Of a stretch of DNA of 64,000 nucleotides, positions 30,031 through 63,220 are shown piece after piece. The notes beneath the pieces were generated by a model. The model searched no databases. It was not told where the DNA came from and saw only the letters and a list, made by a program, of their open reading frames with translations. The position numbers and the translations under genes were made by a program. Numbering within the stretch: position 1 is the first letter of the stretch; the number at the start of each line of letters is the position of its first letter. This stretch comes from Bacilli bacterium. Lineage in GTDB: Bacteria > Bacillota_I > Bacilli_A > ML615J-28 > CAG-698. The stretch covers positions 1,689-65,688 of the forward strand of contig JBFXJT010000003.1 of assembly GCA_050174575.1 (NCBI GenBank), read 5' to 3'.

Positions 30031-31500
30031 TCATTTATCGTAAGTTATTCCGATTTCAAAAGCCCGATTCCATGGGAAATAAGCTTTATAATTTTGTTTA
30101 AAGAATGGGTCGGACAAAACATGTAGCTCTTTTTGCAACAATTGTTTTAATTCATTGTTTGGTTTAAAATCAAACAAGTTTAAAAAATTAAGTCGCAAAT
30201 ATTCATGAACTTTTCCTCTCACGATATCTTGATAAAAACAATCATCAATAATTCGTTCTTGTAAGAACACATTTGTAAGTGCTATGTTTGGCGAAGTTTG
30301 ACTGCAATAAATTAGGGCTGTTGCAAGTAGGCTCCCAGTAGCGTTAGAAGCAGTATTCCAAGCACTATAACCTTTTAATTTTAAGAAATCAAGCTGTTTT
30401 AATAACCAAAAACAGCCGCCATTAGGTGTATGAATATCTAGCAAAAAGACAGGAGTTTTATTTTGCAGTACTTTATTTAGTTGCTCAATGAAGGAATTCG
30501 TGTTTTGGTCGGATAAGGCCTCTAATGGATGTTCGCGATCAGCGATTTCCATTTTTTGGAAGTTATCGCCTTGAAAAATTGCTAAAACAAACGATGCCTC
30601 TTGAATATCGTTCGTTCTTTGCATATGTAAAATGCTGGTCATTTTATTTAGGTTTTCTAAATAAGGACGATCTTCAAATGGAAGACAAATGTTTAATAGT
30701 TCTTCTTTTGGGTGCAACAGAAAATATTTTAATTCACGGTTTCCGATATTACTAATGATTTTTGCAAGTAAAAAAGTGGTTCCTTCATCGGTGCCGTTAT
30801 ATAACCAAGCTTTTTCTTCTAAATGGTGCTCTTTAATCTGCGCCATTAAAAGATCATGCTCCAATGTTTGCAAACCATCAGCCATTGAATCTTCTTGAAG
30901 AAGAAGCAAAAAATCAATTTCATTTTGTTGCAACATATTAATTGCTAGTTTGTTTACTTCGTGTTTTTTAATTCTTGCGATTTCATATGTTTTTAAAACA
31001 TCAACAGGGATTTTTAAACTAATTTCTTGAAACTTTTCACAGTCCTTTTGCTCATGGTATCGTAAATATTTTCCCTTATAACGGCTATACTCATTGATTA
31101 AACGCCAGTATTGTTTCGTTTTTTCATCAAATGTAGAAATGGAAGTGCGAAGAACGGTATCAAACATATAAATTTTTAGTTTTGGATTATGTTTTTTTAG
31201 TTTTTTTATTAATTGAATTTTATATTGTAATTCTTCTTTTGAAAAATTAGCACTTCTGCTTTGAATTAGTCCTCCACTAATGATACTATCTAGTGGACAA
31301 ATTAAATAATCGAGATTTCTTGCTTCTTCGTTTAAGAAGTTTTCGATGTTTTTAAAATCAAGTTTTGTATGGAGAGTCCCTAATTGGGTTTTATCCATCG
31401 TTATCAAATTGACGTTTGCTAATTTTGCTAATGTAATTGCCCAATCGTAATTACAAGGCCGACTATCTAGAGGAATTAAGCCAATATTCGTTTTCATCAT
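30031..31500 (-). CDS. Uncharacterised cytoplasmic protein, paralog A of a ~500 aa family (DUF4127-like; assignment from memory, unverified)
   Basis: Shares the N-terminal 'IGLIPLDSRPCNY' and C-terminal 'SAWNTASNATGSLLA' motifs with the paralogs at 45043 and 48483. The ATGATG start follows an AAAGGAG RBS; the track ORF is extended upstream. Confidence 0.5.
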   Translation of the reverse strand: MMKTNIGLIPLDSRPCNYDWAITLAKLANVNLITMDKTQLGTLHTKLDFKNIENFLNEEARNLDYLICPLDSIISGGLIQSRSANFSKEELQYKIQLIKKLKKHNPKLKIYMFDTVLRTSISTFDEKTKQYWRLINEYSRYKGKYLRYHEQKDCEKFQEISLKIPVDVLKTYEIARIKKHEVNKLAINMLQQNEIDFLLLLQEDSMADGLQTLEHDLLMAQIKEHHLEEKAWLYNGTDEGTTFLLAKIISNIGNRELKYFLLHPKEELLNICLPFEDRPYLENLNKMTSILHMQRTNDIQEASFVLAIFQGDNFQKMEIADREHPLEALSDQNTNSFIEQLNKVLQNKTPVFLLDIHTPNGGCFWLLKQLDFLKLKGYSAWNTASNATGSLLATALIYCSQTSPNIALTNVFLQERIIDDCFYQDIVRGKVHEYLRLNFLNLFDFKPNNELKQLLQKELHVLSDPFFKQNYKAYFPWNRAFEIGITYDK

Positions 31501-31569
31501 AAGCTCCTTTTTGTTCATATTGTAACACAGGCAATTTAAAAAGAGAATAAGAATATTTTTAAAAATCAA

Positions 31570-31598
31570 TTGACTAGACATTTAGTTGGTGCTATAAT
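31570..31598 (+). promoter_or_regulatory. Consensus sigma-A promoter (TTGACT-17-TATAAT) with an operator-like TTGACTAGACA element over the -35
   Basis: The -35 and -10 boxes are read directly. The identical 11-mer TTGACTAGACA recurs at the promoter at 50031. Confidence 0.5.
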
Positions 31599-31609
31599 CA
31601 AAGGCGTGA

Positions 31610-31623
31610 TGTAAACGTTATCA
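31610..31623 (+). promoter_or_regulatory. Catabolite-responsive element (cre, CcpA site) just downstream of the -10
   Basis: TGTAAACGTTATCA matches the TGWAANCGNTNWCA consensus at every constrained position. It lies within a larger 8-5-8 inverted repeat AAACGTTA-tcagt-TAACGTTT (31613-31633). Confidence 0.5.
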
Positions 31624-31681: not shown

Positions 31682-33229
31682 ATGTTTAAAAAATTAATGA
31701 TTGCCTTTTTAATGATTGCCTCGGTTTTCATGTTTGTTGGATGTACTAAAGATGACGACGTTGTTGAAAGCTTAGACAACATTAAAATTTATGGCCCGTT
31801 TGACACATTTGACCCAGAAACTGATTATGTTCATCAACTAATCAAAGATATTACTGGTGTTGATGTTGATTATGACTTTTTACCACAAGATGGCGCTTCT
31901 GCAAATACTAAACTTTATTTAGATATTGCTGGACAAGCAGAATACCATTTGATGAAACTTGCTCCTACTCAATTTGATCAACTAAGAGCTGTTGGAGCTT
32001 TACTCGATATTACTGAATTACTAAACGAATATGGAACAAATATTACAAGTTCTGTTAGTGAAGAAGTATGGAAAACAGCAACTTACGATGGAAAAATTTA
32101 CGGTGTTCCTCAAAAGAACCCATCAAACAACATCAATAGTGCTTTATTCTTAAGAAAAGACATTTTTGTTGAAAACGAGATAGCTCTTCCAACTACTTTA
32201 ACGGAATTTAAAGATGCTATGGTTGCTTTAAAAACAAAATTAGGAACTGGATTTGTTCCTTTCAGTGCTAGTTCACATAACATTGAACCAATTAGAGGCG
32301 CCTTTGGGATCGTTACTGACTGGGTTCCACAAACTGATGGCACTTTAAAATATTGGACAGAAACAGCTGCTTTCTAAGACTATGCAGATTATATGAAAGA
32401 ATTAGTTGACTTGGGAGTTATGCAAGATGGTTATTTAACAATCCCTAATTATGGTGCAAATAGCCGTGCCGGATTGCAAAACGGAACAGTTGGTGTTACA
32501 CTAGATGCATGGTGGAGTGGCAATGGTATTATCAATGGTATCGCTGCTTCAGAAGGACAAACAGAAGAATATGTAATCGAACACGCTGCTGATTACTTAC
32601 ATTTTATTGACTCTTTATTAGGTGATGCTAATTATGGTACACCAGGAAAAGGTCAAGCTAAAATGGATTATTCCGTTACTTATTTCTATGCTATTCCAAA
32701 ATATATGGAAAACACAGCCATGGCCGTTATTAAATGGATGAATGAAAAAATGGATCCAGTTAACTTCAAACGTTTAACAATTGGTGAAGAAAATGTTCAT
32801 CATACACTTGTTGATGGCAAATATTTCCCAATATTAACACCTGATACTAATGGAAAAATTCCTTTTGATTCTTTCAATAAAGGTGATTATTTCTTAACTG
32901 GTATTCGCGAAGAAGATTATTCATTATACTGGCAATGTCGAGCTCGTAAGAATCCTCGTCAACAATTTGTTTGGGAAGGAATGAATACAGAAGCACAAAA
33001 AACAAGTGTCGGAATTTATGATCGCGTTGGTCTAGCTCCAGGATTCTTAATTTATGGCGCTAATAAAACGAAATTATCACAACTTACGACTGATTACTTA
33101 GTAAGTGTCATCACAGGCCAAGGGACACAAATGACACAAACTGAATTCAATGCGAAATTAGTTGCAGAAGCACAATTAACAGAAAGCATCGCTGAAGTTA
33201 ATGCTTGGTATGCAACTCTTGGTGATTAA
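31682..33229 (+). pseudogene. LplA/YesO-type extracellular sugar-binding lipoprotein (ABC SBP family 1) interrupted by an in-frame TAA at 32375-32377
   Basis: Lipobox 'FMFVGC'. ORFs 31682-32377 and 32393-33229 are in the same frame, and the read-through translation '...YWTETAAF*DYADYMKELVDLG...' is continuous SBP sequence. Confidence 0.6.
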
Positions 33230-33250: not shown

Positions 33251-33886
33251 ATGGTTAATAGAGCACTTTTTGTTATGGGGCGTTTATTTTTATTAAATGT
33301 CATATATATTCTTACGATTGCTTTTAGTGTAGGAATATTGGTTGCCCCGGCAACAAGTGCTCTTTTTTATTGTACTAAAGACTTGTTAAAAAAAGATACA
33401 CACGAGTTTGGCTTTTTCAAACAATATATTAACATCATCAAAACAAAATTCCGTTATAGTTTTTTGTTTGGACTGATTGCTTTGATTATTCTTTATCTAT
33501 GTATCGTTAATTTAGATAATGTATTATTGCTGAATTATGAACAATGGTTATTAAAAACAATTGTTGTATTTCAATATATTATTATTCTTGAAACTTCTTT
33601 AATGTTTATTATGGTTCTTTTTTTGAATGGACTGTTTGTTTTTAATAAGTTTTCTGATTTATTAAAAATGTCTTTTTTCATTTTACATCGACATATCCTA
33701 ACAACTATTTTGTTGGGTATATCCGTTATTGTTCTCATCTATGTTTTTATTTATTACATCAACGCTTTATTCTTATTATTGTTTTTTAGTATGATTAGTT
33801 TATGGGTCAATTTATTATATTGGCCTATCGTGATAAAATATATAAAAAAGGAGGAAAAACCCGAACATGAGCAAGAAACCGAATAA
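33251..33886 (+). CDS. YesL-like membrane protein (DUF624)
   Basis: The N-terminal pattern 'RLFLLNVIYILTIAFSVGILVAPATSALFY' and its size/TM layout are typical of DUF624 proteins that accompany LplABC transporters. Confidence 0.55.
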   Translation: MVNRALFVMGRLFLLNVIYILTIAFSVGILVAPATSALFYCTKDLLKKDTHEFGFFKQYINIIKTKFRYSFLFGLIALIILYLCIVNLDNVLLLNYEQWLLKTIVVFQYIIILETSLMFIMVLFLNGLFVFNKFSDLLKMSFFILHRHILTTILLGISVIVLIYVFIYYINALFLLLFFSMISLWVNLLYWPIVIKYIKKEEKPEHEQETE

Positions 33887-34805
33887 GTTATTAAAACATT
33901 TTAAACAATATGGGGCCTTGTATTTCTTCTTAATACCCGGGTTAGTTCTTGTTGCCATTTTTAACTATGTTCCTATGGCAGGAATTGTTATTGCTTTTAA
34001 GCATTATGATATTTTTGCAGGAAATACACCAATTGAATCAATCATAAAAAGTGATTGGGCGGGATTTACCCATTTCGAAGCTTTATTTAGTAATAACGAC
34101 TTCATTAATGCTTTCGAAAACACTTTAATCATAAGCACTTATAAAATTGTTTTTTTATTCCCAATACCAATTGTTTTAGCAATCATGATTACCGATATTA
34201 AAGCTCTTTGGTATAAAAAGGTTATTCAAATTGTTTTATACTTGCCACATTTTTTGTCATGGATTGTTGTTACAGCTTTGTTTATTCAAATATTAGGGCC
34301 TTACGGGGTCATCAATAATTGGTTAAAAGATTTGAACATAATTGAGCATTCACTGGCCTTTTTTGGAAATAATGATATTTTCCGTGGACTGATTGTTATT
34401 TCTGCTGGATGGAAAGAAGTAGGCTGGAATGCGATTATATATATTGCTGCCATTACGGGGATTAACCCACAATTATATGAAGCAGCAAAAATGGATGGAG
34501 CCAATAAAATTCAACAAATTTTCTATATTACAATTCCATCAATTGCTAATACAATTGTTATGTTGTTTATTTTGCGAATTGGCGCTATTTTAGATGCTGG
34601 TTTTGACCAAATTTTTAATATGTATTCCTATGTGGTATATGATAAGGGTGATATTTTGTCAACACTTGTTTACCGATCAGGTATTGGACAACAAAACTAT
34701 AGTTTTGCGACAGCAGTCGGATTATTCAATTCCGTTGTTGCGTTAATCATGGTTCTTGGAGGCAATTATTTATCACGTAAAATCTTTAAGAAAGGATTGT
34801 GGTAA
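33867..34805 (+). CDS. Sugar ABC transporter permease, LplB-like (CUT1)
   Basis: 'KHFKQYGALYFFLIPGLVLVAIFNYVPMAGIVIAFKHY' is the characteristic LplB N-terminus, and the 'EAAKMDGANKIQQIFYITIP' EAA loop is present. Confidence 0.8.
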   Translation: MSKKPNKLLKHFKQYGALYFFLIPGLVLVAIFNYVPMAGIVIAFKHYDIFAGNTPIESIIKSDWAGFTHFEALFSNNDFINAFENTLIISTYKIVFLFPIPIVLAIMITDIKALWYKKVIQIVLYLPHFLSWIVVTALFIQILGPYGVINNWLKDLNIIEHSLAFFGNNDIFRGLIVISAGWKEVGWNAIIYIAAITGINPQLYEAAKMDGANKIQQIFYITIPSIANTIVMLFILRIGAILDAGFDQIFNMYSYVVYDKGDILSTLVYRSGIGQQNYSFATAVGLFNSVVALIMVLGGNYLSRKIFKKGLW

Positions 34806-34807
34806 TT

Positions 34808-35674
34808 ATGCTTGAGTCAAGAAGCGATAAAATATTCAGCATTATTGTATATATCATTTTATCCATTTTTGGATTATCAATTATTTTGCCGTTTTTCAAT
34901 TTATTAGCGACATCCCTTTCCGATCAAGTAGCTGTTTCTAACGGTTCAGTTTCATTTTGGCCAAAAAACTTCACATTTAGTGCTTACCAATTTGTTGTGC
35001 AAAACGATCAATTTTGGAATGGATTAAAAACAACGGTCTTTGTAACATTTGTTGGAACGGCATTAGCGATGGTTGTAACAACACTTGTTGCCTATCCGCT
35101 AAGCCTTCCCAAATTTCGAGCTCGTAAAATTTTTCTAGTTATCTTTATTATTGTTATGCTTTTTAATGGAGGACTAATTCCCACATATTTACTTATTAAT
35201 CAAATCGGATTACGTAATAATCGGTGGGCGCTAATCTTGCCATCCCTCATTTCTACATACAATATGTTACTTGTGAAAAACTATTTTGAAACATTGCCAG
35301 AATCATTGTATGAGTCCGCTAAAATTGATGGGGCAACCGAATTTCAAATCTTTTTGAAAATCACGTTACCTTTATCACTACCAACACTGGCAACTGTTGC
35401 TTTGTTTTATGCCGTTGGCTTTTGGAACGCTTATGTTAGTGGTATGTTGTATATATCAACACCGAGCAAAATGCCACTGCAAACATATTTACAAACGCTT
35501 CTCAATATGGCGTATATACCGGCACACGAACTATCGCCAGAAGCAGCTGAAAGTTTGTCGACGGAATCGATTAGAGCAGCAACAATTTTTTCAGCAACAG
35601 TCCCTATTTTGATTCTTTATCCTTTCTTACAAAAATATTTTGTGAAAGGGTTAGTATTGGGGTCGGACAAATAA
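34808..35674 (+). CDS. Sugar ABC transporter permease, LplC-like (CUT1)
   Basis: EAA-loop 'ESAKIDGATEFQIFLKITLP' with 6 TM helices. Confidence 0.8.
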   Translation: MLESRSDKIFSIIVYIILSIFGLSIILPFFNLLATSLSDQVAVSNGSVSFWPKNFTFSAYQFVVQNDQFWNGLKTTVFVTFVGTALAMVVTTLVAYPLSLPKFRARKIFLVIFIIVMLFNGGLIPTYLLINQIGLRNNRWALILPSLISTYNMLLVKNYFETLPESLYESAKIDGATEFQIFLKITLPLSLPTLATVALFYAVGFWNAYVSGMLYISTPSKMPLQTYLQTLLNMAYIPAHELSPEAAESLSTESIRAATIFSATVPILILYPFLQKYFVKGLVLGSDK

Positions 35675-36096
35675 TGAAAGACCGTTTTAAAATTTTTATC
35701 TTAAGATCCTGGGTAATTGGGATGGTTGTCGTTGTGGTTTATTTCATGATGAGTTTGCAACATATTTTTATTGGACTTATTTTAGGAATTATCAATACCT
35801 TTTTGGTTGATTTATTAAGTTTAACTATCAACAAAGGTAATCAGGCTGCTTTTCCTACAGGATGGAAATTGTTTTTTAAAACCATTTTCAATATTGCTAT
35901 TGCCATCATCATTAGTTTAATTATTCGCTTAATCGATTTGCAACTATTAAAAAACAACCTTATTACTATGCCAATTGAAACATTTCGCTTTATTGCTTAT
36001 TACCAAATTATTTATTATGGATCGTTATTCGTATATAACAAAATAAAAAGATTAATTGAGAGGAACAAAAATGAAACGATTATTAAAAAGCCTTAA
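35674..36096 (+). CDS. Small membrane protein of unknown function
   Basis: 3-4 TM helices. It overlaps neighbouring genes in an operon-like arrangement. Confidence 0.35.
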   Translation: MKDRFKIFILRSWVIGMVVVVVYFMMSLQHIFIGLILGIINTFLVDLLSLTINKGNQAAFPTGWKLFFKTIFNIAIAIIISLIIRLIDLQLLKNNLITMPIETFRFIAYYQIIYYGSLFVYNKIKRLIERNKNETIIKKP

Positions 36097-36766
36097 AACT
36101 AAACCGATGACACTTGTCGTCAGTTTGCCAGAAAACACTTACGAAATGGCAAAAGCTGCTTGGGAAGCAGGCGCAGATGCCATTAAAGTGCACATCAATT
36201 TATTTCACAACGCTAGTTTAATCAAATTTGGAACGATTGAAGAGCAACGACCTGTTTTAGAAAAAATATTGCACGACTCTCCGGTTCCTGTTGGTGTCGT
36301 AGCTGGCGAAAATACAAAAGTTAGTGAAGGGGTCATCGAAGAATTAGTTCGAATGGGATTCGATTTTATATCTTTGTATGGTCATCATATGCCTGTATCG
36401 TTATGCAATCGCCAAGACGTATCAAACTTATTTGCAATTGATTATAGTTATTCAGTTGAAGAAGTAAAAACAATTACTAATTCATTCATTGCAGAAATAT
36501 TGGAGTTATCAATTCTTCCTCATGAAGAATATGGTTCTCGTCTTAATGCCCGAGATTTAAGTCGTTATTTAGCTTTTTCACAAGTATCTAATATTCCAAC
36601 ACTTTTACCAACTCAAAGATTGATTTATCCGAGCGATGTTCAAGCAATTGCTAATTGTGGCGTCAAAGCAATCATGATTGGAGCAATTGTTTTTGGTCAC
36701 GATCTTCATCAAATGGTTGAACAAATAAAGTTATTTAAACAAGCTATAAATGAATTAAAGCAGTAA
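36071..36766 (+). CDS. Hypothetical cytoplasmic protein, possibly a TIM-barrel (alpha/beta) enzyme
   Basis: Alternating beta-alpha pattern with 'AWEAGADAIKVH' and a 'VKAIMIGAIVFG' phosphate-binding-like C-terminal motif. The family is not recognised with confidence. Confidence 0.35.
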   Translation: MKRLLKSLKTKPMTLVVSLPENTYEMAKAAWEAGADAIKVHINLFHNASLIKFGTIEEQRPVLEKILHDSPVPVGVVAGENTKVSEGVIEELVRMGFDFISLYGHHMPVSLCNRQDVSNLFAIDYSYSVEEVKTITNSFIAEILELSILPHEEYGSRLNARDLSRYLAFSQVSNIPTLLPTQRLIYPSDVQAIANCGVKAIMIGAIVFGHDLHQMVEQIKLFKQAINELKQ

Positions 36767-36776: not shown

Positions 36777-37736
36777 ATGTCACTAGCGATTCAGGCCGTT
36801 CCGATATATGATAGTAAAGCGTTTGATATACGTCGCTATATCCATCCTCCAATATATGATGGAAAAATCGATCAAGAAAAACTTCCAATTGCCCCTCCAG
36901 CATGTTTTTTAGGAGCATGGTATCGTAAAGTTTTTTCATCATTTGACAAATGGGTTGGTATTGAAGGGGTGATTGAATTAGGAGAATTTACTCCCGATGA
37001 AGCACGTTTCAATTTAGATGGTAAAGGCCGCTATATGGATGTTCCAAGTATTTATATGGGTGGAAAAAGCGCTTTTGAAAGTGATGCCGGCTTAGGTTTA
37101 GGACCAACATATTTAACTTCTGATTTTTCTTTTGAATTAACAATGGCCAGTCCTAAAATAGCTTATCGTCCTTTTTGGCGTTATATTTATCAAGATGCAA
37201 CTGATATCAACGGTAATGTCAATCGACGTGAAATCAATTCTTGGAATGTTACTGAACCTAGAAGCGTTATTTATAGTTACTTTCCTGGTGATGTTTTAAG
37301 AATGAGTGTTTATAGTCCTATTCCTGATTACTTACAATTACACATCGAAGTATTAAAAACGACGACGATTCCTAAATATGTGCAAATTAGAGAACAATAT
37401 CATTTAGAAAATAATCGTCCCGATGATTTTTTCAGCCCAATCTTTTTATCAAAAGGTCATGGGAAAAATGATGCAGAATTTAAAAGAGTGAATGCTATTG
37501 ATCAATTTGGGAATGAAGGATTTCATGCAAAACCAACCAAAGCTGAAGTTTCAAAAGCTACTTGGCACGAAACATATTTATATCGGATGATTAATAACGA
37601 AGTTAGACGTATTCCATTTTCGAAAGCTAGGCAAACAAGTATGATTTGCCCAAACAATGATGCCGTTTCTGTTATCGACATTGATCCAGAAATTGGCAGC
37701 GAAGCAATAATCATTCATCCGGGGAAAATAAAATAG
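36777..37736 (+). CDS. Unknown-family cytoplasmic protein, 319 aa, paralog A
   Basis: ~45-50% identical to the 44071-45030 product. Shared blocks are 'FLGAWYRKVFSSFD.W.G.EGVI.LGEFTPD..RFNLDGKGRYMD.PSIYMGGKSA', 'AYRPFWRYIY..ATD..GNV.R.EINSWNV' and 'RQTSMICPN.DA'. It has no signal peptide and an AAGGAG RBS. Confidence 0.5.
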   Translation: MSLAIQAVPIYDSKAFDIRRYIHPPIYDGKIDQEKLPIAPPACFLGAWYRKVFSSFDKWVGIEGVIELGEFTPDEARFNLDGKGRYMDVPSIYMGGKSAFESDAGLGLGPTYLTSDFSFELTMASPKIAYRPFWRYIYQDATDINGNVNRREINSWNVTEPRSVIYSYFPGDVLRMSVYSPIPDYLQLHIEVLKTTTIPKYVQIREQYHLENNRPDDFFSPIFLSKGHGKNDAEFKRVNAIDQFGNEGFHAKPTKAEVSKATWHETYLYRMINNEVRRIPFSKARQTSMICPNNDAVSVIDIDPEIGSEAIIIHPGKIK

Positions 37737-39449: not shown

Positions 39450-39461
39450 GAAGGATTAGTG

Positions 39462-41770: not shown

Positions 41771-41795
41771 CAGTGCCATTTTTTGGCACTTTTTA
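41771..41795 (+). terminator. Terminator after the GNAT-GntR gene
   Basis: AGTGCCA-tttttt-GGCACT is followed by TTTTAATTT. Confidence 0.5.
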
Positions 41796-41797: not shown

Positions 41798-41809
41798 TTG
41801 TATATACAA
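41798..41809. promoter_or_regulatory. Perfect 12-bp palindrome TTGTATATACAA (GntR-family GT-N-TA-N-AC operator type) in the promoter region of the GHL10 gene
   Basis: Read directly. It lies ~17-28 nt upstream of a TATAAT at 41826-41831. Confidence 0.4.
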
Positions 41810-55542: not shown

Positions 55543-56205
55543 ATGAAATTTGAAAAATTATTTAATAGCAAGTTCTATATGTTTTTTGAATGGCTATATC
55601 GGATGATTATCATTAATTTGTTATTTATTTTATGCTCCGTACTTGGTCTTATTGTCTTTTCGATTGTCCCTTCGTTTATTGCAATGATTACTATTATAAA
55701 ATCGTTGTCTACGGAAACCTCATTTCCGATTGTTCGACCTTTTTTTCGGATTTTCTTAAAACACTTTAAACAAAATATAGTTTTATCATTAGTTTTTTTA
55801 GTGCTTACTTTGATGTTTTTGTTTAATACTTATTTTTTCTTTCTCGCTTGGCAAGAATATCAAGCCTTAATCAATGAAATAATTTTTAATTTTACGCTAG
55901 TATTAGATGGAATTTTAATTGTATCATTCATTAATGCTTTATTTATTAGGGTTTATTTCCCTAATTTAAACACTTTAAAAACACTAAAATATGCCATAAT
56001 TTTGTTAAGAGCAATGCCAATGCAATTCTTGTTGGTGTTCTTATTGTTAATTGTCATGGCTGTTTTACTTTATTATTTCCCTTACTTTTTAATTATTATG
56101 GGATTTTCAATCGTCATTTATATTGTCAATTTATTAATAAGAACAAAATATTCCAAGCTTGTTGCAACGGGAGTAATCTCGCTTCAAGCACAAGATTATT
56201 TATAA
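55543..56205 (+). CDS. YesL-like membrane protein (DUF624), second copy
   Basis: The N-terminal 'FFEWLYRMIIINLLFILCSVLGLIVFSIVPSFIAMITII' pattern and TM layout resemble the 33251 product. Confidence 0.55.
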   Translation: MKFEKLFNSKFYMFFEWLYRMIIINLLFILCSVLGLIVFSIVPSFIAMITIIKSLSTETSFPIVRPFFRIFLKHFKQNIVLSLVFLVLTLMFLFNTYFFFLAWQEYQALINEIIFNFTLVLDGILIVSFINALFIRVYFPNLNTLKTLKYAIILLRAMPMQFLLVFLLLIVMAVLLYYFPYFLIIMGFSIVIYIVNLLIRTKYSKLVATGVISLQAQDYL

Positions 56206-56230: not shown

Positions 56231-59125
56231 ATGAAGAAAAAAATCGTCATTATTACGCTTTTAATATTGTTAGCGTTAAGCGGATATTTGTTAATTGATT
56301 TTTTAGATGTTGAAGCAAGTGAACCGCGTCCTTATGTCGGGTCCATTTATGAAAGCGTGCTGGTTAATAGTTCTTCTTATGAAGAATATTTGCAAAACAT
56401 TGATGAAGATGTATCCGATGTTGCTTTTTCGCAAGCAGCCACTCAAGGATATACTTATTCACTAGATAACGCCAATGTCCTGCCATATGTTCTTACAATT
56501 GATGATCAAGAAGGGTTATATATCCCCGAAATTGGTGACGTATCTTGGACGGTCAATGTTCCCAAAGCAGGACAATACACCATTTCATTGACATATTATC
56601 CAATTGAAGGACGAAGTTCAGAAATAAACCGTGGGTTAAAAATAAACGGTGAATATCCTTTTTCAGAAGCATCATCATTTGTCTTACCAAGAATTTGGGA
56701 GGATGCTTTTGATGTTTCTACAAGAAGAATTGACGGAAAACATGATCAAAAACCCGCACAGATTGAAAAGCCAAGATGGAACGTATTTCCTATACGTGAC
56801 ACCGCTGGTTTTTACAACGGGAAAAGTTATTTCTTCTATTTAGAACAAGGTGCTTCCACAATTACTTTAACTGGAAATAAAGAACCAATGATTTTATCCT
56901 CGTTTCAATTTCAACCGGTTGTTAACGAAAAAACATATCTTGAATTGCTTTCTTACTACGAGGAACAAAACTATGAAAAAGTAAGTAGTGAAGAAATGAG
57001 CAATGTCGGTTATATAAAGGAACAAGGTGAAACAACTTTTGAAAAATCAACACCAATTTTATCACCTGTTGCTAATTGGAGTAGTTATAAGGTTGATCCA
57101 TATGTCCAGTTCATTACAAGATACAACACTGTTGGTGGAACAACTTGGCGTGTTGCTGGCGATTTTGTTAGTTGGGAAGTTGAAGTCCCTAAATCGGGGT
57201 TGTATCAGCTAACATTAAAAGTGCTTCAGAATTATCGTCAGGGAATGTACTCAACAAGAATTTTATCGATTAACGGTGAAGTGCCTTTTAGTGAATGCCG
57301 AAACATTCAATTTAAGTATGATAGCGATTGGCAGAATGTAACTTTAGGCAATGACGATGGTGCTTATTGGTTTTATTTTGAACAAGGCAAAAATACAATT
57401 ACATTGGAAGCAACAATTGGCGTTTATGCGCAAATAGTGAGAGTTGCGGAAGAAACCATTGCTACATTAAACTCCTTATACCGTAAGGTAGTCATGATTG
57501 CGGGAGCTAATCCCAATGAATATCAAGACTATTTGCTAGAAGAACGGATCGATGGTTTATTCGAAATGATCTCTTCTAGTGCAGATAATTTACAAGCATG
57601 CATCGACAGCATCGTTACTATTGCTGGCGAAAGAAGTGCGCTTGTTTCCAGCTTTGAACGAACACTCTATCAAATGCGACAATTTGCGAAAAGCGAACGT
57701 AATATCCAAATTGGTTTGAAAGAACTTGATGATAATATTGCTGCTTTGGGGACATGGGTCATGACCATTTCCGAACAATCTTTAGCAATCGATTGTTTTT
57801 ATATTCATGGTGAACATGTGAAATTGCCCAAAGCAAGCACAAACTTTTTCCAAAAACTTTGGCATGAAATTGTCATGCTTTTCGGAAGTTATGGTGCAAA
57901 CACATCTTTAGAAAGCAGTGTTGAAACCGATGGGGAAACAATTACTGTTTGGATATCTTCTGGCCGTGATCAATCACAACTCTTAAGACAATTAATTGAT
58001 GAATCATTTACTTTACAAAAAAATATTAATGTTAGTTTAAAATTAGTTTCGCAAGCAGCACTTTTACCGGCAACATTATCGGGGAATGGTCCCGATGTTG
58101 CCATTGGTGTTGGTCAAAACATCCCTGTTAACTGGGGGATCAGAAATGCCCTATTGGATTTAACTCAATTTACGGATTTTGAAGAAGTACAAACTTGGTT
58201 TCATGATAGCGCCATAACACCGTTTATTTTTCAAAACCATGTTTATGCATTACCAGATACTCAAGATTTTTTAGTATCGTTTGTGAGAACGGATATTATG
58301 GCTGAATTGAACATGACTGTCCCTGATTCTTGGGATGAAGTCATCGATACGCTTCCACAACTACAAAGGCAATATCTTGATTATTATTTACCTAATTCCA
58401 AGGGCGCATTAAGTTCGTTATTGTATGCAATGGTTGCTCAAAAAGGTGGTCGTTTATACGATGACGAAGGAACAAAAACATTGCTGACAGAAACAAATGC
58501 TACAGAAGCTTTTATTGATTTCACAACGTTTTTTAGTGACTATGGTTTTGAAGTGAGTGCCAACTTCTCTAATCGTTTTCGTAGTGGTGAAATGCCAATA
58601 GGCGTTGCGAATTTTTCGCTATACAATACACTATCGGTATTCGCTCCAGAAATTCGTGGTCATTGGGAATTTAGACCTTTACCTGGTTACAAAACGAATG
58701 AAGAAATTGCTAACCAAACAACATCAACTGTTACAGGAACAGTTATTTTAGGAAACACAAAGCATCCTAATGCTAGTTGGGAATTCTTGAAATGGTGGTT
58801 GGGTGAAGAAGCACAAGCGGGATATGCTCGAGGCATGGAAGCCATTCTAGGGGCTGCAGCTCGTTATCCAACAGCTAATTTAACGGCTTTTGAAAAATTG
58901 CCATGGTCAACAAAGGATTATCAATTGTTGACTTCCCAAAGAGAAAAGGCTGTTGGTGTTCCAACATTCCCTGGTGATTACATTGTCGGCCGTTATATCG
59001 ATAATGCTTTTCGGGCTTCAATCAATGATAATATCAATCCTCGTGACAGTTTATTTGAATATTGTAAAAAAATAAATATCGAACTTGAAAGAAAACGTCA
59101 AGAATTCGGTTTGAATGGAGAGTAA
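56231..59125 (+). CDS. Large (964 aa) membrane-anchored extracellular solute-binding protein: N-terminal duplicated beta-sandwich (carbohydrate-binding-like) domains fused to a family-1 sugar SBP
   Basis: The N-terminal TM/signal anchor is followed by two homologous ~150 aa modules ('W.V.VPK.G.Y.L.......R.L.INGE.PFSE...') and then a C-terminal ~420 aa SBP_bac_1-like domain. It is immediately followed by LplB/LplC-type permeases. Confidence 0.65.
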   Translation: MKKKIVIITLLILLALSGYLLIDFLDVEASEPRPYVGSIYESVLVNSSSYEEYLQNIDEDVSDVAFSQAATQGYTYSLDNANVLPYVLTIDDQEGLYIPEIGDVSWTVNVPKAGQYTISLTYYPIEGRSSEINRGLKINGEYPFSEASSFVLPRIWEDAFDVSTRRIDGKHDQKPAQIEKPRWNVFPIRDTAGFYNGKSYFFYLEQGASTITLTGNKEPMILSSFQFQPVVNEKTYLELLSYYEEQNYEKVSSEEMSNVGYIKEQGETTFEKSTPILSPVANWSSYKVDPYVQFITRYNTVGGTTWRVAGDFVSWEVEVPKSGLYQLTLKVLQNYRQGMYSTRILSINGEVPFSECRNIQFKYDSDWQNVTLGNDDGAYWFYFEQGKNTITLEATIGVYAQIVRVAEETIATLNSLYRKVVMIAGANPNEYQDYLLEERIDGLFEMISSSADNLQACIDSIVTIAGERSALVSSFERTLYQMRQFAKSERNIQIGLKELDDNIAALGTWVMTISEQSLAIDCFYIHGEHVKLPKASTNFFQKLWHEIVMLFGSYGANTSLESSVETDGETITVWISSGRDQSQLLRQLIDESFTLQKNINVSLKLVSQAALLPATLSGNGPDVAIGVGQNIPVNWGIRNALLDLTQFTDFEEVQTWFHDSAITPFIFQNHVYALPDTQDFLVSFVRTDIMAELNMTVPDSWDEVIDTLPQLQRQYLDYYLPNSKGALSSLLYAMVAQKGGRLYDDEGTKTLLTETNATEAFIDFTTFFSDYGFEVSANFSNRFRSGEMPIGVANFSLYNTLSVFAPEIRGHWEFRPLPGYKTNEEIANQTTSTVTGTVILGNTKHPNASWEFLKWWLGEEAQAGYARGMEAILGAAARYPTANLTAFEKLPWSTKDYQLLTSQREKAVGVPTFPGDYIVGRYIDNAFRASINDNINPRDSLFEYCKKINIELERKRQEFGLNGE

Positions 59126-59128
59126 AAG

Positions 59129-60085
59129 ATGAATAAAACACTTATTACTCATACACAAAAGCAAGCAGAAAGACGAGCTCGGCGACAAGAATTTTGGAAA
59201 CAAGTTAAGAAAAACAAAGTTTCTTACACGATGATTGCCCCCTTTATAATTATATTCTTTACATTCACCGTTCTTCCGGTATTGATGAGCTTTTTCTTAA
59301 GTTTTACATCTTTTGATATGCTTCAGGCACCAAAATTTCTTGGTCTTGATAATTATATTAATCTGTTTTTAAACGATGAAGTTTTTTTAATTGCAATTAA
59401 AAACACCTTTATATTAGCAGTGATTACCGGTCCTGTTTCTTATGTTTTAGCGTTTTTATTTGCCTGGCTAATCCATGAATTACCGAAAAAGATCCGTTGG
59501 TTTATGACCTTGGTTTTTTATGCTCCGTCAATCAGCGGTAGTGCTTATTTACTTTGGCAGCTAATCTTTTCTTCCGATATGTATGGCGTTTTAAATGCTT
59601 TCTTAATTAATTTAGGCATTATCAATGCACCAATTCTTTGGCTAGAATCACCTCAATATGCACTTATTATCTTAATCATTGTTCAACTTTGGTTAAGTTT
59701 AGGCGTAACTTTCCTTGCTTTCATTGCCGGATTACAAACTGTTGATCGCACTTTGTATGAAGCGGCAGCCATTGATGGTTTACGTAACCGTTGGCAAGAA
59801 TTATGGTTTATTACACTTCCTCAAATGAAATCACAATTGATGTTTGGTGCTGTAATGCAAATTACAAATGCCTTGGGGATTGCCTCTGTTTCGATTAATT
59901 TACTCGGATTTCCATCTGTGGAATATTCCGGACACACAATTGTCACCCATTTAATGGATTTTGGATCAACCAATTCCACCCGTTTAGAAATGGGATATGC
60001 TTCAGCAATTGCGACCGTCCTTTTCTTTATCATGTTGGGTTCCAACCTAATTGTTCAAAAAATAATTAGGAGGGTCGGATCATGA
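59129..60085 (+). CDS. Sugar ABC transporter permease, LplB-like (CUT1)
   Basis: LplB-type N-terminus and the EAA loop 'EAAAIDGLRNRWQELWFITLP'. Confidence 0.8.
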   Translation: MNKTLITHTQKQAERRARRQEFWKQVKKNKVSYTMIAPFIIIFFTFTVLPVLMSFFLSFTSFDMLQAPKFLGLDNYINLFLNDEVFLIAIKNTFILAVITGPVSYVLAFLFAWLIHELPKKIRWFMTLVFYAPSISGSAYLLWQLIFSSDMYGVLNAFLINLGIINAPILWLESPQYALIILIIVQLWLSLGVTFLAFIAGLQTVDRTLYEAAAIDGLRNRWQELWFITLPQMKSQLMFGAVMQITNALGIASVSINLLGFPSVEYSGHTIVTHLMDFGSTNSTRLEMGYASAIATVLFFIMLGSNLIVQKIIRRVGS

Positions 60086-61038
60086 GTAAAAAGAAAGCAA
60101 TGATGATGACCGAACAAGAGCGAAGTCAAGTCATCCAAGATCTTAAAGTTCAAGAATTAGAATGGTACAAACAAAAACGAAAATTTAAAAAATACCGCCG
60201 AGTTCGACTGAGTCGATCAATTTGGGGAGACATTTTTGTTGTTTTTGTGTTAGTACTATTTGGAACGTTCAGTGCCTATCCACTAATTTATACAATTTCG
60301 AATTCCTTAAAAGGGCTTGATGAAATTTTTGTTTTTCCACCACGTTTATTTCCGAGAAATATAACGTTTCGTAATTTTATCGATTTATTCAATTTAATTG
60401 GTAATACGCAAATTCCTATTTCTCGTTATTTTATCAATACATTAACGATTACTTTATTTGGGACAGCAGGACATGTTTTACTGTCTTCTCTTTGCGCTTA
60501 TCCTTTATCAAAGCACCGTTTTCCTGGGCGCCATTTAATCAACCAATTAGTTGTTTATTCATTAATGTTTTCAGCAGCCGTTACGGCTATTCCATCTTAT
60601 ATGATTATCAGTTGGCTTGGATTAATTGACTCGCAATTAGCCATCATCATCCCAGCGTTTGGGTTTACTTTAGGCTTGTTTTTAATGCGTCAATTTATGA
60701 ATGTCATTCCCAATGAATTACTAGAAGCAGCAAAAATTGATGGTGCTAACGAATATCAAATCTTTTTTAAAGTCGTTATGCCACTTGTGAAACCTGCTTG
60801 GTTAACTTTAATTATTTTGTTATTCCAACAATTATGGGGAACTGATGGTGGATCGTATATCTTTACAGAAAATTTAAAACCGTTAAGCTATGCTTTAGGG
60901 CAGATTGTTGCTGGCGGTGTTGCCCGAACAGGAACAGCAGCAGCTGTTACCGTCATCATGCTGATTGTGCCAATTTCCGTATTCATTTTCAATCAAACAA
61001 AGATGCTGGAAACAATGGCCCATTCAGGACTTAAGTAG
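60082..61038 (+). CDS. Sugar ABC transporter permease, LplC-like (CUT1)
   Basis: EAA loop 'EAAKIDGANEYQIFFKVVMP' with 6 TM helices. Confidence 0.8.
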   Translation: MSKKKAMMMTEQERSQVIQDLKVQELEWYKQKRKFKKYRRVRLSRSIWGDIFVVFVLVLFGTFSAYPLIYTISNSLKGLDEIFVFPPRLFPRNITFRNFIDLFNLIGNTQIPISRYFINTLTITLFGTAGHVLLSSLCAYPLSKHRFPGRHLINQLVVYSLMFSAAVTAIPSYMIISWLGLIDSQLAIIIPAFGFTLGLFLMRQFMNVIPNELLEAAKIDGANEYQIFFKVVMPLVKPAWLTLIILLFQQLWGTDGGSYIFTENLKPLSYALGQIVAGGVARTGTAAAVTVIMLIVPISVFIFNQTKMLETMAHSGLK

Positions 61039-61047
61039 GAGGGACTT

Positions 61048-62538
61048 ATGAAAAAAATTATTAGTCTACTTCTAAGTATTGTTTTGCTTGTTTCGCTTAA
61101 TTTTGCTTCCGTTAAAGGAGCTTATAATTACAGCCCTTTGGGAGAAGTGATTGCTTCAGCAGAAGCTCTGATTGCTACAAAAGTCATTGATTCTTCCAAT
61201 TTAAGAACGGAAAATGATGAAAAAGCGTCCCTTGTTTTGGGAACGCTCAGTGATGTCTTTTCATTCAATGACTATATTTATATCGTTGATAACACAAATA
61301 GTATGATTCATATCTTAAATAGTGATTATCAGTATGTGAAAAGTTTTGGACAAGGGTTAGCACCTGCCAGACTTAATAAACCGCAAGGGATTTTTATTAC
61401 TGATAACTATATTTATGTTGCCGATACCGATAATTTTCGGATAGCTATTTTTAATCATGAAGGGGAATATGAAAAAGAAATTAACGCCCCCGATGATTCC
61501 ACATTTAAACAAAGCCCCGACGATCAAACAGGATACGACTTTAAGCCAATCAAAGTTGCTGTTGACCGAACAGGACGAATTTATGCAATCGCGGATCAAA
61601 TTTTTGAAGGCATTATTGACTTTAACCCCGATGGTAGTTTTTCACGTTATGTTGGCGCTAATTCCATCACCCTATCTGTTTGGGATGCTTTTTGGTTGCA
61701 GTTTACATCCGAAGAACAAAGACAAAACCAGGGATATCGCTTAGCAACAACTTTCTCCAATTTAAATATTGATGACAAAGGTTATTTATATACATTATCG
61801 GGTCCAGAAGAAGGAACGAAAGTAATTAAAAAGCTCAACTATAAAGGGCTTGATGTTTTAACCCGTAACGGTTATGTTCCTTTAGTGGGGGATGCTAATT
61901 ATTTAATAAGTCAAGACGATGTTCCAGAAGGACCAAGTCAATTAATTGATATTGATATTAACGAGCAAGGTTATTATACCGTTTTGGATAGTGTTAGAGG
62001 ACGTATGTTCACTTATGACTTTGAAGGAAATCTCTTATATATCGGTGGACAAATAGGGAATATTAGTGGTTCCACAAACAACCAAAGTACTTTATTCATT
62101 AGTCCAAAAGCGCTATGCTACCATCAAAATAAAATTTTGGTTATCGATTCTTTAAATAAAAATTTAGTTGTTTTTGAATATACGGAATTTGGAAAACTAG
62201 TCAATGAAGCAACCAATCTTTATTTATTAGGAAAATACGATGAAGCAAAAGAAGTTTGGGAGCAAGTTCTTGTTCTCAATACCAATTATTATTTAGCCTA
62301 TGCTGGCATTGGTAAAGCCCAATTACGAGCAGGAGATTATGAACAAGCCATGGATAATCTAAAACTTGGTTATGATTCATATAATTATTCACAAGCTTAT
62401 CAACAATATCGTTATGATCAGTTAACAAAAGTATTTCCTTTTGTTATGGGAATAATCATCATTTTGATGGTTTTTGCTTTTGGAAAATCAATTAAAAAAG
62501 CTGTTGACAACGAAGTTAAGGAGGAAAAAGATGAATAA
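61048..62538 (+). CDS. Secreted NHL-repeat beta-propeller protein with a C-terminal TPR-like region and a TM anchor
   Basis: Carries a signal peptide. NHL-like 'YIYVADTDNFRIAIFNHEG', 'RIYAIAD' and 'KILVIDSLNKNLVVF' blades, TPR-like 'YDEAKEVWEQVLVLNTNYYLAYAGIGKAQLRAGDYEQA' and a C-terminal hydrophobic helix. Confidence 0.5.
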   Translation: MKKIISLLLSIVLLVSLNFASVKGAYNYSPLGEVIASAEALIATKVIDSSNLRTENDEKASLVLGTLSDVFSFNDYIYIVDNTNSMIHILNSDYQYVKSFGQGLAPARLNKPQGIFITDNYIYVADTDNFRIAIFNHEGEYEKEINAPDDSTFKQSPDDQTGYDFKPIKVAVDRTGRIYAIADQIFEGIIDFNPDGSFSRYVGANSITLSVWDAFWLQFTSEEQRQNQGYRLATTFSNLNIDDKGYLYTLSGPEEGTKVIKKLNYKGLDVLTRNGYVPLVGDANYLISQDDVPEGPSQLIDIDINEQGYYTVLDSVRGRMFTYDFEGNLLYIGGQIGNISGSTNNQSTLFISPKALCYHQNKILVIDSLNKNLVVFEYTEFGKLVNEATNLYLLGKYDEAKEVWEQVLVLNTNYYLAYAGIGKAQLRAGDYEQAMDNLKLGYDSYNYSQAYQQYRYDQLTKVFPFVMGIIIILMVFAFGKSIKKAVDNEVKEEKDE

Positions 62539-63220
62539 TGATTTAAAAAAAGTCAAGCACTTTTCCAACTTTAACTTTAAACAAGCTTTTAAAAAGTTTA
62601 TCGATGAAGCTTTTGCGAAACCCTTTTATTTAATTACTCATCCCATAAAAGGGTTTGACGAATTTAAAAGGGAAAAAACATCGCGAACGGATATTGCCAT
62701 CTTTTATCTTGTTATGATGATCATTACCCAAATTATTGCTTACAATGAGAACGGTTTTTTAATTAATCGGCAAAACCCCGATGACTTCAACTTGTTTCTA
62801 ACAATTGCTTTGGTCATTTTTCCGGTATTAATCGGCACAATAGGCAATTGGTCATCAACCGTTTTAATGGATGGTAAAGGAACAATGAAGGAAATATTCC
62901 ATGTTATATGTTATGCCTTCTTTCCTTATGTGTGGCTTGGTTTGTTTTCAACGCTTATCAGCAATATTATAACGATTGATGAAATTATTTTCTTTAGTTT
63001 TTTTAATGGGTTAGGAGCATTTTTATTAGTTTACATGTTGTTTTTTGGACTGATGGGGATTCATGAATATGGTTTATTGAAAACAATCTTCATGATTATT
63101 GCAACAGTTGTTGCCATTGCTGTCATCTTATTTATCATGTTGCTTTTCTTGTCCTTAATCCAACAAGTTTATTCCTACATTGCTTCGGTATATCGTGAGT
63201 TTGTGATGAGGTTTCTATGA
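62531..63220 (+). CDS. Yip1-domain-like polytopic membrane protein
   Basis: An AGGAGG RBS precedes ATG 62531. It has 5 TM helices and an N-terminal cytoplasmic segment. The family assignment is tentative. Confidence 0.4.
   Translation: MNNDLKKVKHFSNFNFKQAFKKFIDEAFAKPFYLITHPIKGFDEFKREKTSRTDIAIFYLVMMIITQIIAYNENGFLINRQNPDDFNLFLTIALVIFPVLIGTIGNWSSTVLMDGKGTMKEIFHVICYAFFPYVWLGLFSTLISNIITIDEIIFFSFFNGLGAFLLVYMLFFGLMGIHEYGLLKTIFMIIATVVAIAVILFIMLLFLSLIQQVYSYIASVYREFVMRFL

Follow-up and report, generated by a model that had tools for sequence, protein, structure and literature searches.

What glycan is captured and broken down by a bacterial gene cluster that encodes two importers, two secreted enzymes and an epimerase of amino-sugar phosphates, and at which step do its DUF4127 proteins act? 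The question is raised by 64,000 nucleotides of a metagenome-assembled genome (MAG) of a Bacilli bacterium (contig JBFXJT010000003.1, 90 kb), a stretch referred to below as the window, in which the cluster studied here extends from position 30031 to the window end. The source genome is of a wall-less type, and its closest relatives are Acholeplasmatales, Izemoplasmatales and Haloplasma-type genomes. An earlier note had described a locus for glycan capture, import and catabolism centred on N-acetyl-hexosamines (HexNAc); the gene content agreed with this description, and Pfam bore out nearly every gene that it had named. In general terms, the cluster is very probably an amino-sugar glycan regulon with a core that leads from DUF4127 to NanE, the N-acetylmannosamine 6-phosphate (ManNAc-6-P) 2-epimerase. 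More specifically, and with a lesser degree of assurance, the region is probably a single regulon of at least three operons, through which an extracellular HexNAc glycan would be degraded to ManNAc-6-P, which NanE would convert into N-acetylglucosamine 6-phosphate (GlcNAc-6-P).

DUF4127 and NanE as the conserved core

The following genes of the window belong to this core:

30031-31581, minus strand: divergent DUF4127 paralogue (Pfam PF13552, 340 bits, residues 33-512; 25% identical to the product of 45043-46545)
39459-40127, plus strand: NanE, ManNAc-6-P 2-epimerase (Pfam PF04131, 199.9 bits, profile positions 1-188 of 192)
45043-46545, plus strand: DUF4127 paralogue A, cytoplasmic (Pfam PF13552, 484 bits)
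48483-50012, plus strand: DUF4127 paralogue B (Pfam PF13552, 476 bits; 47% identical to paralogue A)

The PF13552 scores, 340-484 bits, confirmed the three DUF4127-like paralogs of the earlier note, and the window proteins matched the family over its full length, with the PLD-x-RPCN, QDD, EDR and WNT-xx-N motifs in place. In the family, these motifs (PLD-x-RPCN directly after the first strand) are part of about 40 invariant positions, which also include eight arginines and point to an enzyme whose substrate is polar and probably anionic. Paralogue A was modelled with a pLDDT of 94.5. Sequence and profile searches of the PDB gave no solved relative of DUF4127, a Foldseek search of the model against the PDB returned only meaningless matches (TM about 0.2), and a literature search for DUF4127 retrieved no papers.

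A pattern scan for DUF4127, with one genome per species, identified at least 581 encoding stretches, from which 78 loci were retained; the neighbours within 10 kb of DUF4127 were clustered, and the cluster representatives were annotated. NanE was located within 10 kb of DUF4127 in 43 of the 78 loci, in different species and always in the same direction, and the gap between the two genes was at most 100 bp in 22 loci. The other neighbours were RpiR (36 loci), the PF12831 flavoprotein (32), ROK (29), GHL10/GHL6 clusters (18 and 17), GH84 (14), GH20C (14), a family of 319-aa (amino acid) proteins (11) and a phosphodiester glycosidase of the NAGPA type (9). The conserved core is DUF4127 with NanE and not the phosphodiester glycosidase, which is a lineage-specific accessory.

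This comparison of DUF4127 neighbourhoods, which the earlier note had proposed, also revealed an operon that recurs in Paenibacillus, Lachnospiraceae, Oscillospiraceae and Acholeplasmataceae, with the order solute-binding protein (SBP) - permease - permease - [GH84 or GH20C or GNAT pair] - DUF4127 - [PF12831 flavoprotein] - NanE - ROK kinase - RpiR. GHL10/GHL6 enzymes and SGNH/CE2 esterases are encoded near it, NagA/NagB stand at the ends of several of the clusters, and some of the related loci also have genes for PHP proteins or metallophosphatases. With a NanA query, a DHDPS/NanA-type lyase was found neither in the window nor in any of 81 loci. The gene order of the window itself recurs in seven loci (L004, L005, L007, L008, L009, L010 and L019) as GHL10 - 319aa - [GH84] - DUF4127 - NAGPA - [DUF4127] - giant lipoprotein - DUF624 - long SBP. 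In Acholeplasma laidlawii (L083, CP103951.1, 288703-309677), the order is permeases - SBP - SGNH - Ig protein - DUF4127 - two alpha/beta hydrolases - flavoprotein - 319aa - NanE - NagB - unknown - PIG-L deacetylase. The closest relative of the DUF4127/NAGPA block (77% and 69% identity) is L004, on contig CAZYFI010000021.1, which is filed as an 'uncultured Bacteroidales' MAG and is probably a mis-binned Acholeplasmatales-like contig.

Gene fusions pointed in the same direction as the neighbourhoods. An exhaustive profile search gave 2753 DUF4127 clusters at 50% identity, and among the best 150 of these, ten long proteins were fusions (P0311, P0318, P0323, P0330, P0335, P0425, P0319, P0304, P0327 and P0328): six joined DUF4127 to ROK, and one each joined it to NanE, GHL10, SGNH and an alpha/beta hydrolase. 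Moreover, an uninterrupted DUF4127-NanE open reading frame (ORF), with DUF4127 at residues 11-501 and NanE at 534-756, was present in the complete chromosome of Anaerocolumna sp. AGMB13025 (L064, 9971-12244) and in two MAGs (L070 and L073). Because DUF4127 is fused to both ROK and NanE, we infer that it acts immediately upstream of phosphorylation and epimerisation. The suggestion of the earlier note that the DUF4127 paralogs supply the missing kinase was rejected, since elsewhere DUF4127 adjoins a ROK kinase gene or is fused to a ROK kinase.

Organisation and regulation

From 31682 to the window end, all long ORFs lie on the plus strand, and their junctions overlap or span at most 25 nt, save for three gaps of 88 nt (41767/41855), 77 nt (50012/50089) and 70 nt (55473/55543), in agreement with the tight, one-sided layout noted beforehand from 31.6 kb onwards. 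The cluster is composed of at least three transcription units, and it continues past the window end with the rest of the DUF5696 gene and two more permeases. The term 'island', used for it earlier, is a figure of speech for a gene cluster: GC content is 0.31-0.37 all along the window, so that in composition the cluster does not stand out from the upstream housekeeping genes, Rfam and tRNA scans of the window found no tRNA and no sign of a riboswitch or an integration site, and the region carries no mobile-element signature.

The control elements and the regulator gene are as follows:

31570-31598, plus strand: promoter-like site of unit 1, TTGACT-17-TG-TATAAT (promoter scan)
31570-31581: operator-like site TTGACTAGACAT at the -35 box of unit 1
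31610-31623: match TGTAAACGTTATCA to the catabolite-responsive element (cre), 12 nt downstream of the -10 box of unit 1
40124-41767, plus strand: GNAT-GNAT-GntR-UTRA fusion regulator of the HutC subfamily, 547 aa (Pfam)
41798-41809: operator-like site TTGTATATACAA at the -35 box of unit 2
41803-41831, plus strand: promoter-like site of unit 2 (promoter scan)
50030-50041: operator-like site TTGACTAGACAA at the -35 box of unit 3
50030-50058, plus strand: promoter-like site of unit 3, TTGACT-17-TATAAT (promoter scan)

The three best sigma-70-like sites of the region are found just upstream of the genes at 31682, 41855 and 50089, and a terminator-like hairpin (41772-41790) directly follows the regulator gene. 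A 12-nt palindrome, TTG(A/T)(C/A)TA(G/T)ACAA, overlaps the -35 box of all three promoter-like sites. For the divergent DUF4127 gene, the mechanical ORF start adds a hydrophobic-looking extension of 28 aa that the DUF4127 match does not cover; translation probably begins near 31497 (MMKTNIGLIPLDSRPCN), which would put the operator at 31570-31581 in a shared divergent control region.

The palindrome is conserved in relatives. The identical 12-mer TTGTATATACAA precedes the GHL10 orthologues of L005, L010 and L019, and TTGACTAGACAA precedes the orthologues of the giant-lipoprotein gene in L005, L007, L008 (twice), L009 and L010; at the lipoprotein gene of L019, a one-base variant, TTGACTATACAA, is within the degenerate consensus. 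The NAGPA proteins of these operator-bearing relatives are 37-62% identical to that of the window. Exact operator matches were found in 12 of 83 loci, all of them Acholeplasmatales, Izemoplasmatales or Haloplasma-type. Furthermore, the extended site ACTTGACTAGACAAGT agrees at 12 of 16 positions with the dre consensus ACTGGTCTAGACCACT.

The regulator, a product of unit 1, carries a GntR helix-turn-helix and a UTRA domain, the domains looked for in a GntR/HutC protein, and the palindromic predicted operator accompanies it at three promoters and in seven related loci. These data suggest that the three units form a single regulon with a conserved dre-like predicted operator and that the GntR/UTRA protein may repress all three until an amino-sugar phosphate relieves the repression. 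In other lineages (e.g. L033), the GNAT pair is a separate 319-aa enzyme encoded directly before DUF4127. In addition, TGTAAACGTTATCA matches the cre consensus TGWAANCGNTNWCA perfectly, as no other stretch of the window does (chance expectation 0.26 per window), which suggests that unit 1 may also be subject to catabolite repression.

Secreted and cytoplasmic enzymes

Two of the enzymes are secreted:

41855-44074, plus strand: secreted GHL10 TIM-barrel enzyme (Pfam GHL10 PF02638, 112 bits against a cut-off of 27.9)
46547-48490, plus strand: secreted phosphodiester glycosidase of the NAGPA type (PF09992, 98.6 bits against a cut-off of 25)

The earlier note had read these as two secreted, membrane-anchored enzymes, a GHL10-like hydrolase and a NAGPA-type phosphodiester glycosidase, and had named the domain searches that could overturn this; both assignments stand, by their profiles, the DGGGS motif, the signal peptides and the anchors. 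The GHL10 protein has a signal peptide, an (EP)n linker and a C-terminal anchor of KGCL, a transmembrane (TM) segment and basic residues. Its similarity to Cwp19 (5oq2) extends over about 250 aa (E 9e-11), with QLDYIRY aligned to HFDDYFY, so that Asp196-Tyr197 is kept and Asp195 is replaced by Leu. Cwp19 of Clostridioides difficile, a peptidoglycan lytic transglycosylase, is the sole biochemically characterised GHL10 protein with a solved structure (PMC6016235), and its closest structural match is the domain of PgaB that hydrolyses poly-N-acetylglucosamine (PNAG) (PMC6016235, PMC5765458). The activity of Cwp19 opens up cell-wall explanations that had not been considered in the earlier note.

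In the second protein, the NAGPA domain occupies residues 265-405, with DGGGS at 371-375, a loop that is invariant in the family from bacteria to man (2026 structural paper, PMC13474241). This protein, too, has a signal peptide and the KGCL-TM-basic anchor. The C-termini of the two enzymes (43960-44074 and 48380-48490) are alike: a linker rich in Glu and Pro is followed by K-G-C-[LF], a hydrophobic stretch of about 20 residues and a basic tail. The pattern [KR/S]GC[FLS]-TM-basic was seen in orthologues from five related MAGs (L004, L005, L010, L019 and L067), and other orthologues have a plain TM anchor. The arrangement resembles a sorting signal of the sortase or exosortase type in which the Cys is invariant; no NCBIfam model matches it.

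The remaining enzymes and one candidate enzyme are these:

36071-36766, plus strand: 231-aa protein, possible phosphate-binding (beta/alpha)8 barrel (weak full-length match to 3inp)
36777-37736, plus strand: 319-aa family, paralogue A, cytoplasmic (62% identical to paralogue B)
37746-39449, plus strand: cytoplasmic GH84 beta-N-acetylglucosaminidase (Pfam NAGidase PF07555, 282 bits against a cut-off of 25)
44071-45030, plus strand: 319-aa family, paralogue B (62% identical to paralogue A)

No signal peptide or lipobox is readable on the GH84, NanE, DUF4127 and 319-aa proteins, whereas one or the other is readable on the GHL10 and NAGPA proteins and on two proteins described below, the 1794-aa protein and SBP1. 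The cytoplasmic GH84 and NanE named beforehand agreed with the Pfam matches; the GH84 protein aligns with NagJ (6pv5; E 4e-58) and keeps the catalytic Asp-Asp (FFDDI against LWDDI). The two 319-aa proteins are the paralogs that they had been taken for (62% identity). They match nothing in Pfam or NCBIfam, and sequence and profile searches of the PDB with the family were empty. The family has about 175 members, all in Acholeplasmatales-like bacteria. In the predicted structure of paralogue B (pLDDT 94.7), the chain forms a ConA-like beta-jelly roll that resembles GH16, PL7, glutamic peptidases and YncM and is close to neprosin and aspergilloglutamic peptidase. This modelled fold fits a glycosidase, a lyase or a glutamic peptidase, and it speaks against the earlier proposal that the 319-aa paralogs provide the missing kinase, phosphatase or deacetylase, functions for which they were excluded. 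The 231-aa protein had been regarded as a TIM-barrel candidate; a weak full-length match to ribulose-phosphate 3-epimerase (3inp, E 0.04) is in keeping with a barrel, and it is the sole support, the protein having no Pfam or NCBIfam match and occurring in none of the 78 related loci.

Importers and surface proteins

The proteins for capture and import are encoded at both ends of the cluster:

31682-33229, plus strand: SBP1, lipoprotein SBP of ABC importer 1 (Pfam SBP_bac_1; lipobox FVGC)
33251-33886, plus strand: DUF624 membrane protein, partner of importer 1 (Pfam PF04854)
33867-34805 and 34799-35674, plus strand: two CUT1-type ABC permeases of importer 1 (Pfam BPD_transp_1)
35674-36096, plus strand: 140-aa multi-pass membrane protein of no family (Pfam and NCBIfam scans)
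50089-55473, plus strand: 1794-aa surface lipoprotein (lipobox VTAC; Pfam)
55543-56205, plus strand: DUF624 membrane protein, partner of importer 2 (Pfam)
56231-59125, plus strand: 964-aa membrane-anchored SBP of importer 2 (Pfam)
59129-61038, plus strand: two ABC permeases of importer 2 (Pfam BPD_transp_1)
61048-62538, plus strand: secreted NHL beta-propeller and TPR protein with a C-terminal TM helix (Pfam; sequence)
62531-63220, plus strand: Yip1-domain membrane protein, 229 aa by the gene call of the source contig (Pfam)
63217-64000, plus strand: N-terminal part of a DUF5696 protein (869 aa) that continues past the window

The CUT1 (LplABC-type) set of an SBP, DUF624 and two BPD_transp_1 permeases is complete twice, in agreement with the two LplABC-type importers and DUF624 partners claimed earlier, and a third pair of permeases lies past the window end. 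SBP1 is one gene with an in-frame TAA at 32375-32377, through which seven SBPs of about 550 aa from DUF4127 operons (L022, L048, L056, L062, L068, L076 and L080) align continuously; the stop may reflect a pseudogene or an assembly error of the MAG. The SBP of importer 2 has an N-terminal extension of 550 aa with sub-threshold CBM35 and Ig-like matches. The 1794-aa protein had been called a huge Ig-domain surface lipoprotein. Its lipobox supports the lipoprotein, but Ig-like domains are confined to the N-terminal 300 aa or so, and the other 1500 aa, approximately, have no significant family; a GH85_C-like beta-sandwich scored just below threshold (26.7 bits against a cut-off of 27), and there is no catalytic domain. 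About 21 full-length homologues of this lipoprotein were found, all from related lineages. Haploplasma axanthum and Acholeplasma also have the NHL-Yip1-DUF5696-permease module beside DUF4127, and a literature search for DUF5696 retrieved no papers. In NCBIfam, ten proteins of the cluster received no name at all.

Outside the cluster, an OppC-type permease (window 759-2756, 665 aa) was found to carry an RCC1-repeat beta-propeller between the N-terminal TM segment and the permease core, and the adjoining Opp ATPase (window 3750-5906, 718 aa) has a large insertion in its ABC domain.

Proposed pathway and substrate

In the proposed pathway, the anchored GHL10 enzyme would cut a HexNAc-containing backbone outside the cell, where the NAGPA-type enzyme would cut a HexNAc-alpha-1-phosphate glycosidic bond, and the giant lipoprotein, the long SBP and the NHL/Yip1/DUF5696 module would hold the fragments and hand them over to the CUT1 ABC systems for import. 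In the cytoplasm, GH84 would take off beta-GlcNAc, the 319-aa jelly-roll proteins might serve as further glycosidases or lyases, and DUF4127 would free ManNAc, or a derivative of it, from the fragment brought in. ManNAc-6-P would then be formed by a kinase whose gene lies elsewhere, and NanE would convert it to GlcNAc-6-P; the GNAT pair may re-acetylate free amino groups. The GntR/UTRA half of the regulator would leave its operators once amino-sugar phosphate had built up.

As to the substrate, we tentatively propose ManNAc-containing, phosphodiester-anchored cell-wall glycopolymers of other bacteria, taken from necromass, with the linkage unit ManNAc-beta-1,4-GlcNAc-1-P of wall teichoic acids and the secondary cell-wall polymers of ManNAc and GlcNAc as the candidates; the odds of this proposal are about one in three. 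ManNAc is rare outside bacterial envelopes, whereas it is part of every known wall teichoic acid linkage unit (ManNAc-beta-1,4-GlcNAc-1-P-6-N-acetylmuramic acid (MurNAc)) and of many secondary cell-wall polymers; ManNAc-bearing cell-wall polymers are also O-acetylated, partly N-deacetylated and phosphodiester-anchored. In related loci, the O-acetyl esterases and GNAT pairs point to an amino-sugar substrate that is O-acetylated and partly N-deacetylated. A ManNAc cell-wall substrate would give a role to the esterases, the GNAT pairs, the PHP/metallophosphatase genes of related loci, a GHL10 enzyme of the HexNAc-polymer type, the beta-hexosaminidases and, in this lineage, the phosphodiester glycosidase. 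Moreover, the wall-less Acholeplasma and Haploplasma carry the system, which argues that, there at least, it scavenges foreign glycans and is not a means of self-recycling. It is possible, although the chances are decidedly below even, that DUF4127 represents a new enzyme class performing the ManNAc-releasing step of a widespread pathway independent of sialate lyase, and might be the first beta-N-acetylmannosaminidase, acting on ManNAc-beta-1,4-GlcNAc in teichoic-acid linkage units and secondary cell-wall polymers.

Several points weigh against this pathway and its substrate. No kinase, NagA or NagB is encoded in the window, so that the route to ManNAc-6-P is incomplete there; searches of the window for homologues of ROK, NagA, NagB, the PF12831 flavoprotein, RpiR and DHDPS/NanA found none, as the earlier note had said of NagA/NagB, ROK kinase and sialate lyase. 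DUF4127, the 319-aa family, DUF5696 and the giant lipoprotein are families without known activity, and the stop codon breaks SBP1, which leaves importer 1 without an intact binding protein. Within the window by itself, the operator pattern occurs no more often than chance predicts; it was retained because it lies on three promoters and is conserved in relatives. Animal NAGPA acts as an exo-enzyme, and the relatives of it in bacteria are uncharacterised. Finally, the proposed substrate is derived from the known chemistry of cell-wall polymers.

Alternative explanations

The best surviving alternative, an improbable one, keeps closest to the earlier note, which had pointed to a polymer with HexNAc-1-phosphate linkages. 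On a poly-HexNAc-1-P backbone, such as poly-ManNAc-1-P or poly-GlcNAc-1-P, of a capsule or teichoic acid, the NAGPA-type enzyme would cut each glycosidic C1-O-P bond and so make HexNAc-6-phosphate outside the cell, and this would be imported and passed straight to NanE without a kinase. The intact DGGGS of a secreted, anchored NAGPA domain, the presence of NanE without a kinase in the window and the PHP or metallophosphatase genes of some related loci are all consistent with such a route, as is the mechanism of NAGPA, in which O6 of the aglycone sugar retains the phosphate (PMC13474241). The secreted enzyme and the HexNAc-centred locus stand, then, but the HexNAc-1-phosphate polymer itself hangs on one gene, because that gene is an accessory present in nine of the 78 loci. 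Most loci have a ROK kinase or even a DUF4127-ROK fusion, which argues that the conserved pathway starts from an unphosphorylated sugar, and GH84, GHL10 and the jelly-roll proteins would be left without a role. CUT1 importers with LplA-type SBPs are not known to carry sugar phosphates, and homopolymers of this kind are rare in nature.

Peptidoglycan scavenging is likewise improbable. In this explanation, GHL10 would act as a lytic transglycosylase or muramidase, GH84 as NagZ, the jelly-roll proteins would trim the peptide stems, and DUF4127, in relatives together with the PF12831 flavoprotein, would remove the lactyl ether of MurNAc to give the manno epimer, on which the need for NanE would follow. 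The many invariant arginines of DUF4127 would suit an anionic substrate, the 319-aa fold is near neprosin and aspergilloglutamic peptidase, related loci encode RpiR/SIS regulators, ROK kinases and O-acetyl esterases, and among solved structures the closest GHL10 protein is the lytic transglycosylase Cwp19 (PMC6016235). However, MurQ, AnmK, MurK, amidase and L,D-carboxypeptidase domains were not among the Pfam results for the cluster proteins or the annotated neighbour clusters, there is no known chemistry from MurNAc to ManNAc, and the coupling to NanE, which is the strongest signal, would not be explained without a new reaction. Nor would a phosphodiester glycosidase have a role in plain peptidoglycan.

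A catabolism of sialic or other nonulosonic acids, in which DUF4127, with or without the flavoprotein, replaces NanA and ManNAc derives from a sugar freed by GHL10-type enzymes, is very unlikely. NanE, ROK, RpiR, an ABC importer, an SGNH esterase and an oxidoreductase are the classic make-up of a nan cluster, and this set recurs around DUF4127, where no NanA homologue was found. Nevertheless, neither GH33 nor another sialidase domain was detected in the cluster proteins or the annotated neighbour clusters, the glycosidases found alongside are beta-hexosaminidases (GH84 and GH20C) and GHL10, and by their record titles the source lineages are mostly from digesters, sediments and soil, where sialoglycans are scarce.

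Least probable of all are host or fungal glycans (GlcNAc-P-Man N-glycans, O-GlcNAc, mucin), PNAG, chitin and chitosan, to which the NAGPA family name, GH84, the near-threshold GH85_C-like module of the lipoprotein (26.7 bits against 27), the likeness of GHL10 to the PNAG hydrolase domain of PgaB and GNAT pairs able to re-acetylate glucosamine might all point, but none of these glycans holds ManNAc, so that NanE would be pointless, and the Pfam scans gave no mannosidase, galactosidase, fucosidase, GH18/19 chitinase, GH85 catalytic domain or sialidase.

Implications

The link between DUF4127 and NanE is strong and widespread; systems of this kind are familiar, and the proposed substrate is a guess. 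Through this link, a family of 2753 clusters gains a functional context, the step before ROK kinase and NanE. Bacterial phosphodiester glycosidases of the NAGPA type gain a first natural context. We know of no catabolic route for ManNAc-containing polymers of the bacterial cell wall, and no N-acetylmannosaminidase was found in the searched literature, in which PF12831, DUF4985 and GHL6 also gave nothing relevant. An N-acetylmannosaminidase, if DUF4127 is one, would fill a gap in the recycling of microbial necromass, and with it, GHL10, the NAGPA-type enzyme and the jelly-roll family, Bacillota, including the wall-less Acholeplasmatales, could then feed on the anchoring glycans of other bacteria's walls. 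The operon has cultured carriers in Acholeplasma laidlawii, Paenibacillus alvei, Lachnoclostridium phytofermentans and Anaerocolumna, of which A. laidlawii, a genetically studied Mollicute, would be a convenient test organism. The regulon, with its predicted operator, regulator and three promoters, could be used as a reporter for the inducer.

Comparison with known systems

The earlier note had not recognised the gene combination as a described locus and had allowed that it might match a well-characterised one. The literature searches for DUF4127 and DUF5696 described above brought up no such description, and comparison with nan, MurNAc recycling and chitin or N-glycan loci placed the cluster in none of them; for the canonical nan cluster, a DHDPS domain was not among the Pfam results for the window or the annotated neighbour clusters. 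The likeness to known systems is one of parts. The nan clusters of firmicutes such as Streptococcus pneumoniae and Ruminococcus gnavus comprise NanE, NanK/ROK, RpiR or another regulator, a SAT ABC importer, an esterase, an oxidoreductase, the NanA lyase and a GH33 sialidase. They send an imported amino sugar through ManNAc-6-P and NanE, as is proposed here, and the related DUF4127 loci share with them a ROK kinase, RpiR, a CUT1 importer, SGNH esterases and oxidoreductases. Unlike those clusters, the window has no NanA lyase or sialidase, in the place of which DUF4127, GHL10 and beta-hexosaminidases are found, and it has no ROK/NanK kinase and a regulator of the GntR/HutC type.

The secreted enzymes also depart from their known relatives. 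Like Cwp19 (PDB 5OQ2), the GHL10 protein is a secreted, surface-retained TIM-barrel of the same Pfam family with the equivalents of Asp196-Tyr197 conserved, but the relationship is distant, Asp195 is replaced by Leu, a C-terminal TM signal stands instead of CWB2 repeats, and the gene belongs to a catabolic operon, whereas Cwp19 is an autolysin. The NAGPA-type protein has the domain and the invariant DGGGS sugar-phosphate loop of vertebrate NAGPA and of bacterial DUF2233 proteins (PDB 6PKU and 3OHG), from which it differs in an identity below 20% and in additional N- and C-terminal domains. With NagR and DasR of the GntR-HutC group, which control GlcNAc utilisation through dre operators, the regulator shares the GntR and UTRA domains and a palindromic operator near the dre consensus, but it is fused to two GNAT domains, and its operator arms are TTG/CAA rather than TGG/CCA.

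The cluster as a whole resembles the Gram-positive polysaccharide utilisation loci with LplABC/YesL CUT1 importers, in which a lipoprotein SBP, two permeases and DUF624, without an ATPase in the locus, accompany secreted and cytoplasmic glycosidases; in contrast to these loci, most enzymes of the cluster come from families for which an activity is not known (DUF4127, the 319-aa family, DUF5696 and the 1794-aa lipoprotein). In conclusion, the locus works like a Gram-positive polysaccharide utilisation locus that is joined to the ManNAc branch of a nan cluster and placed under a predicted repressor of the NagR/DasR type.

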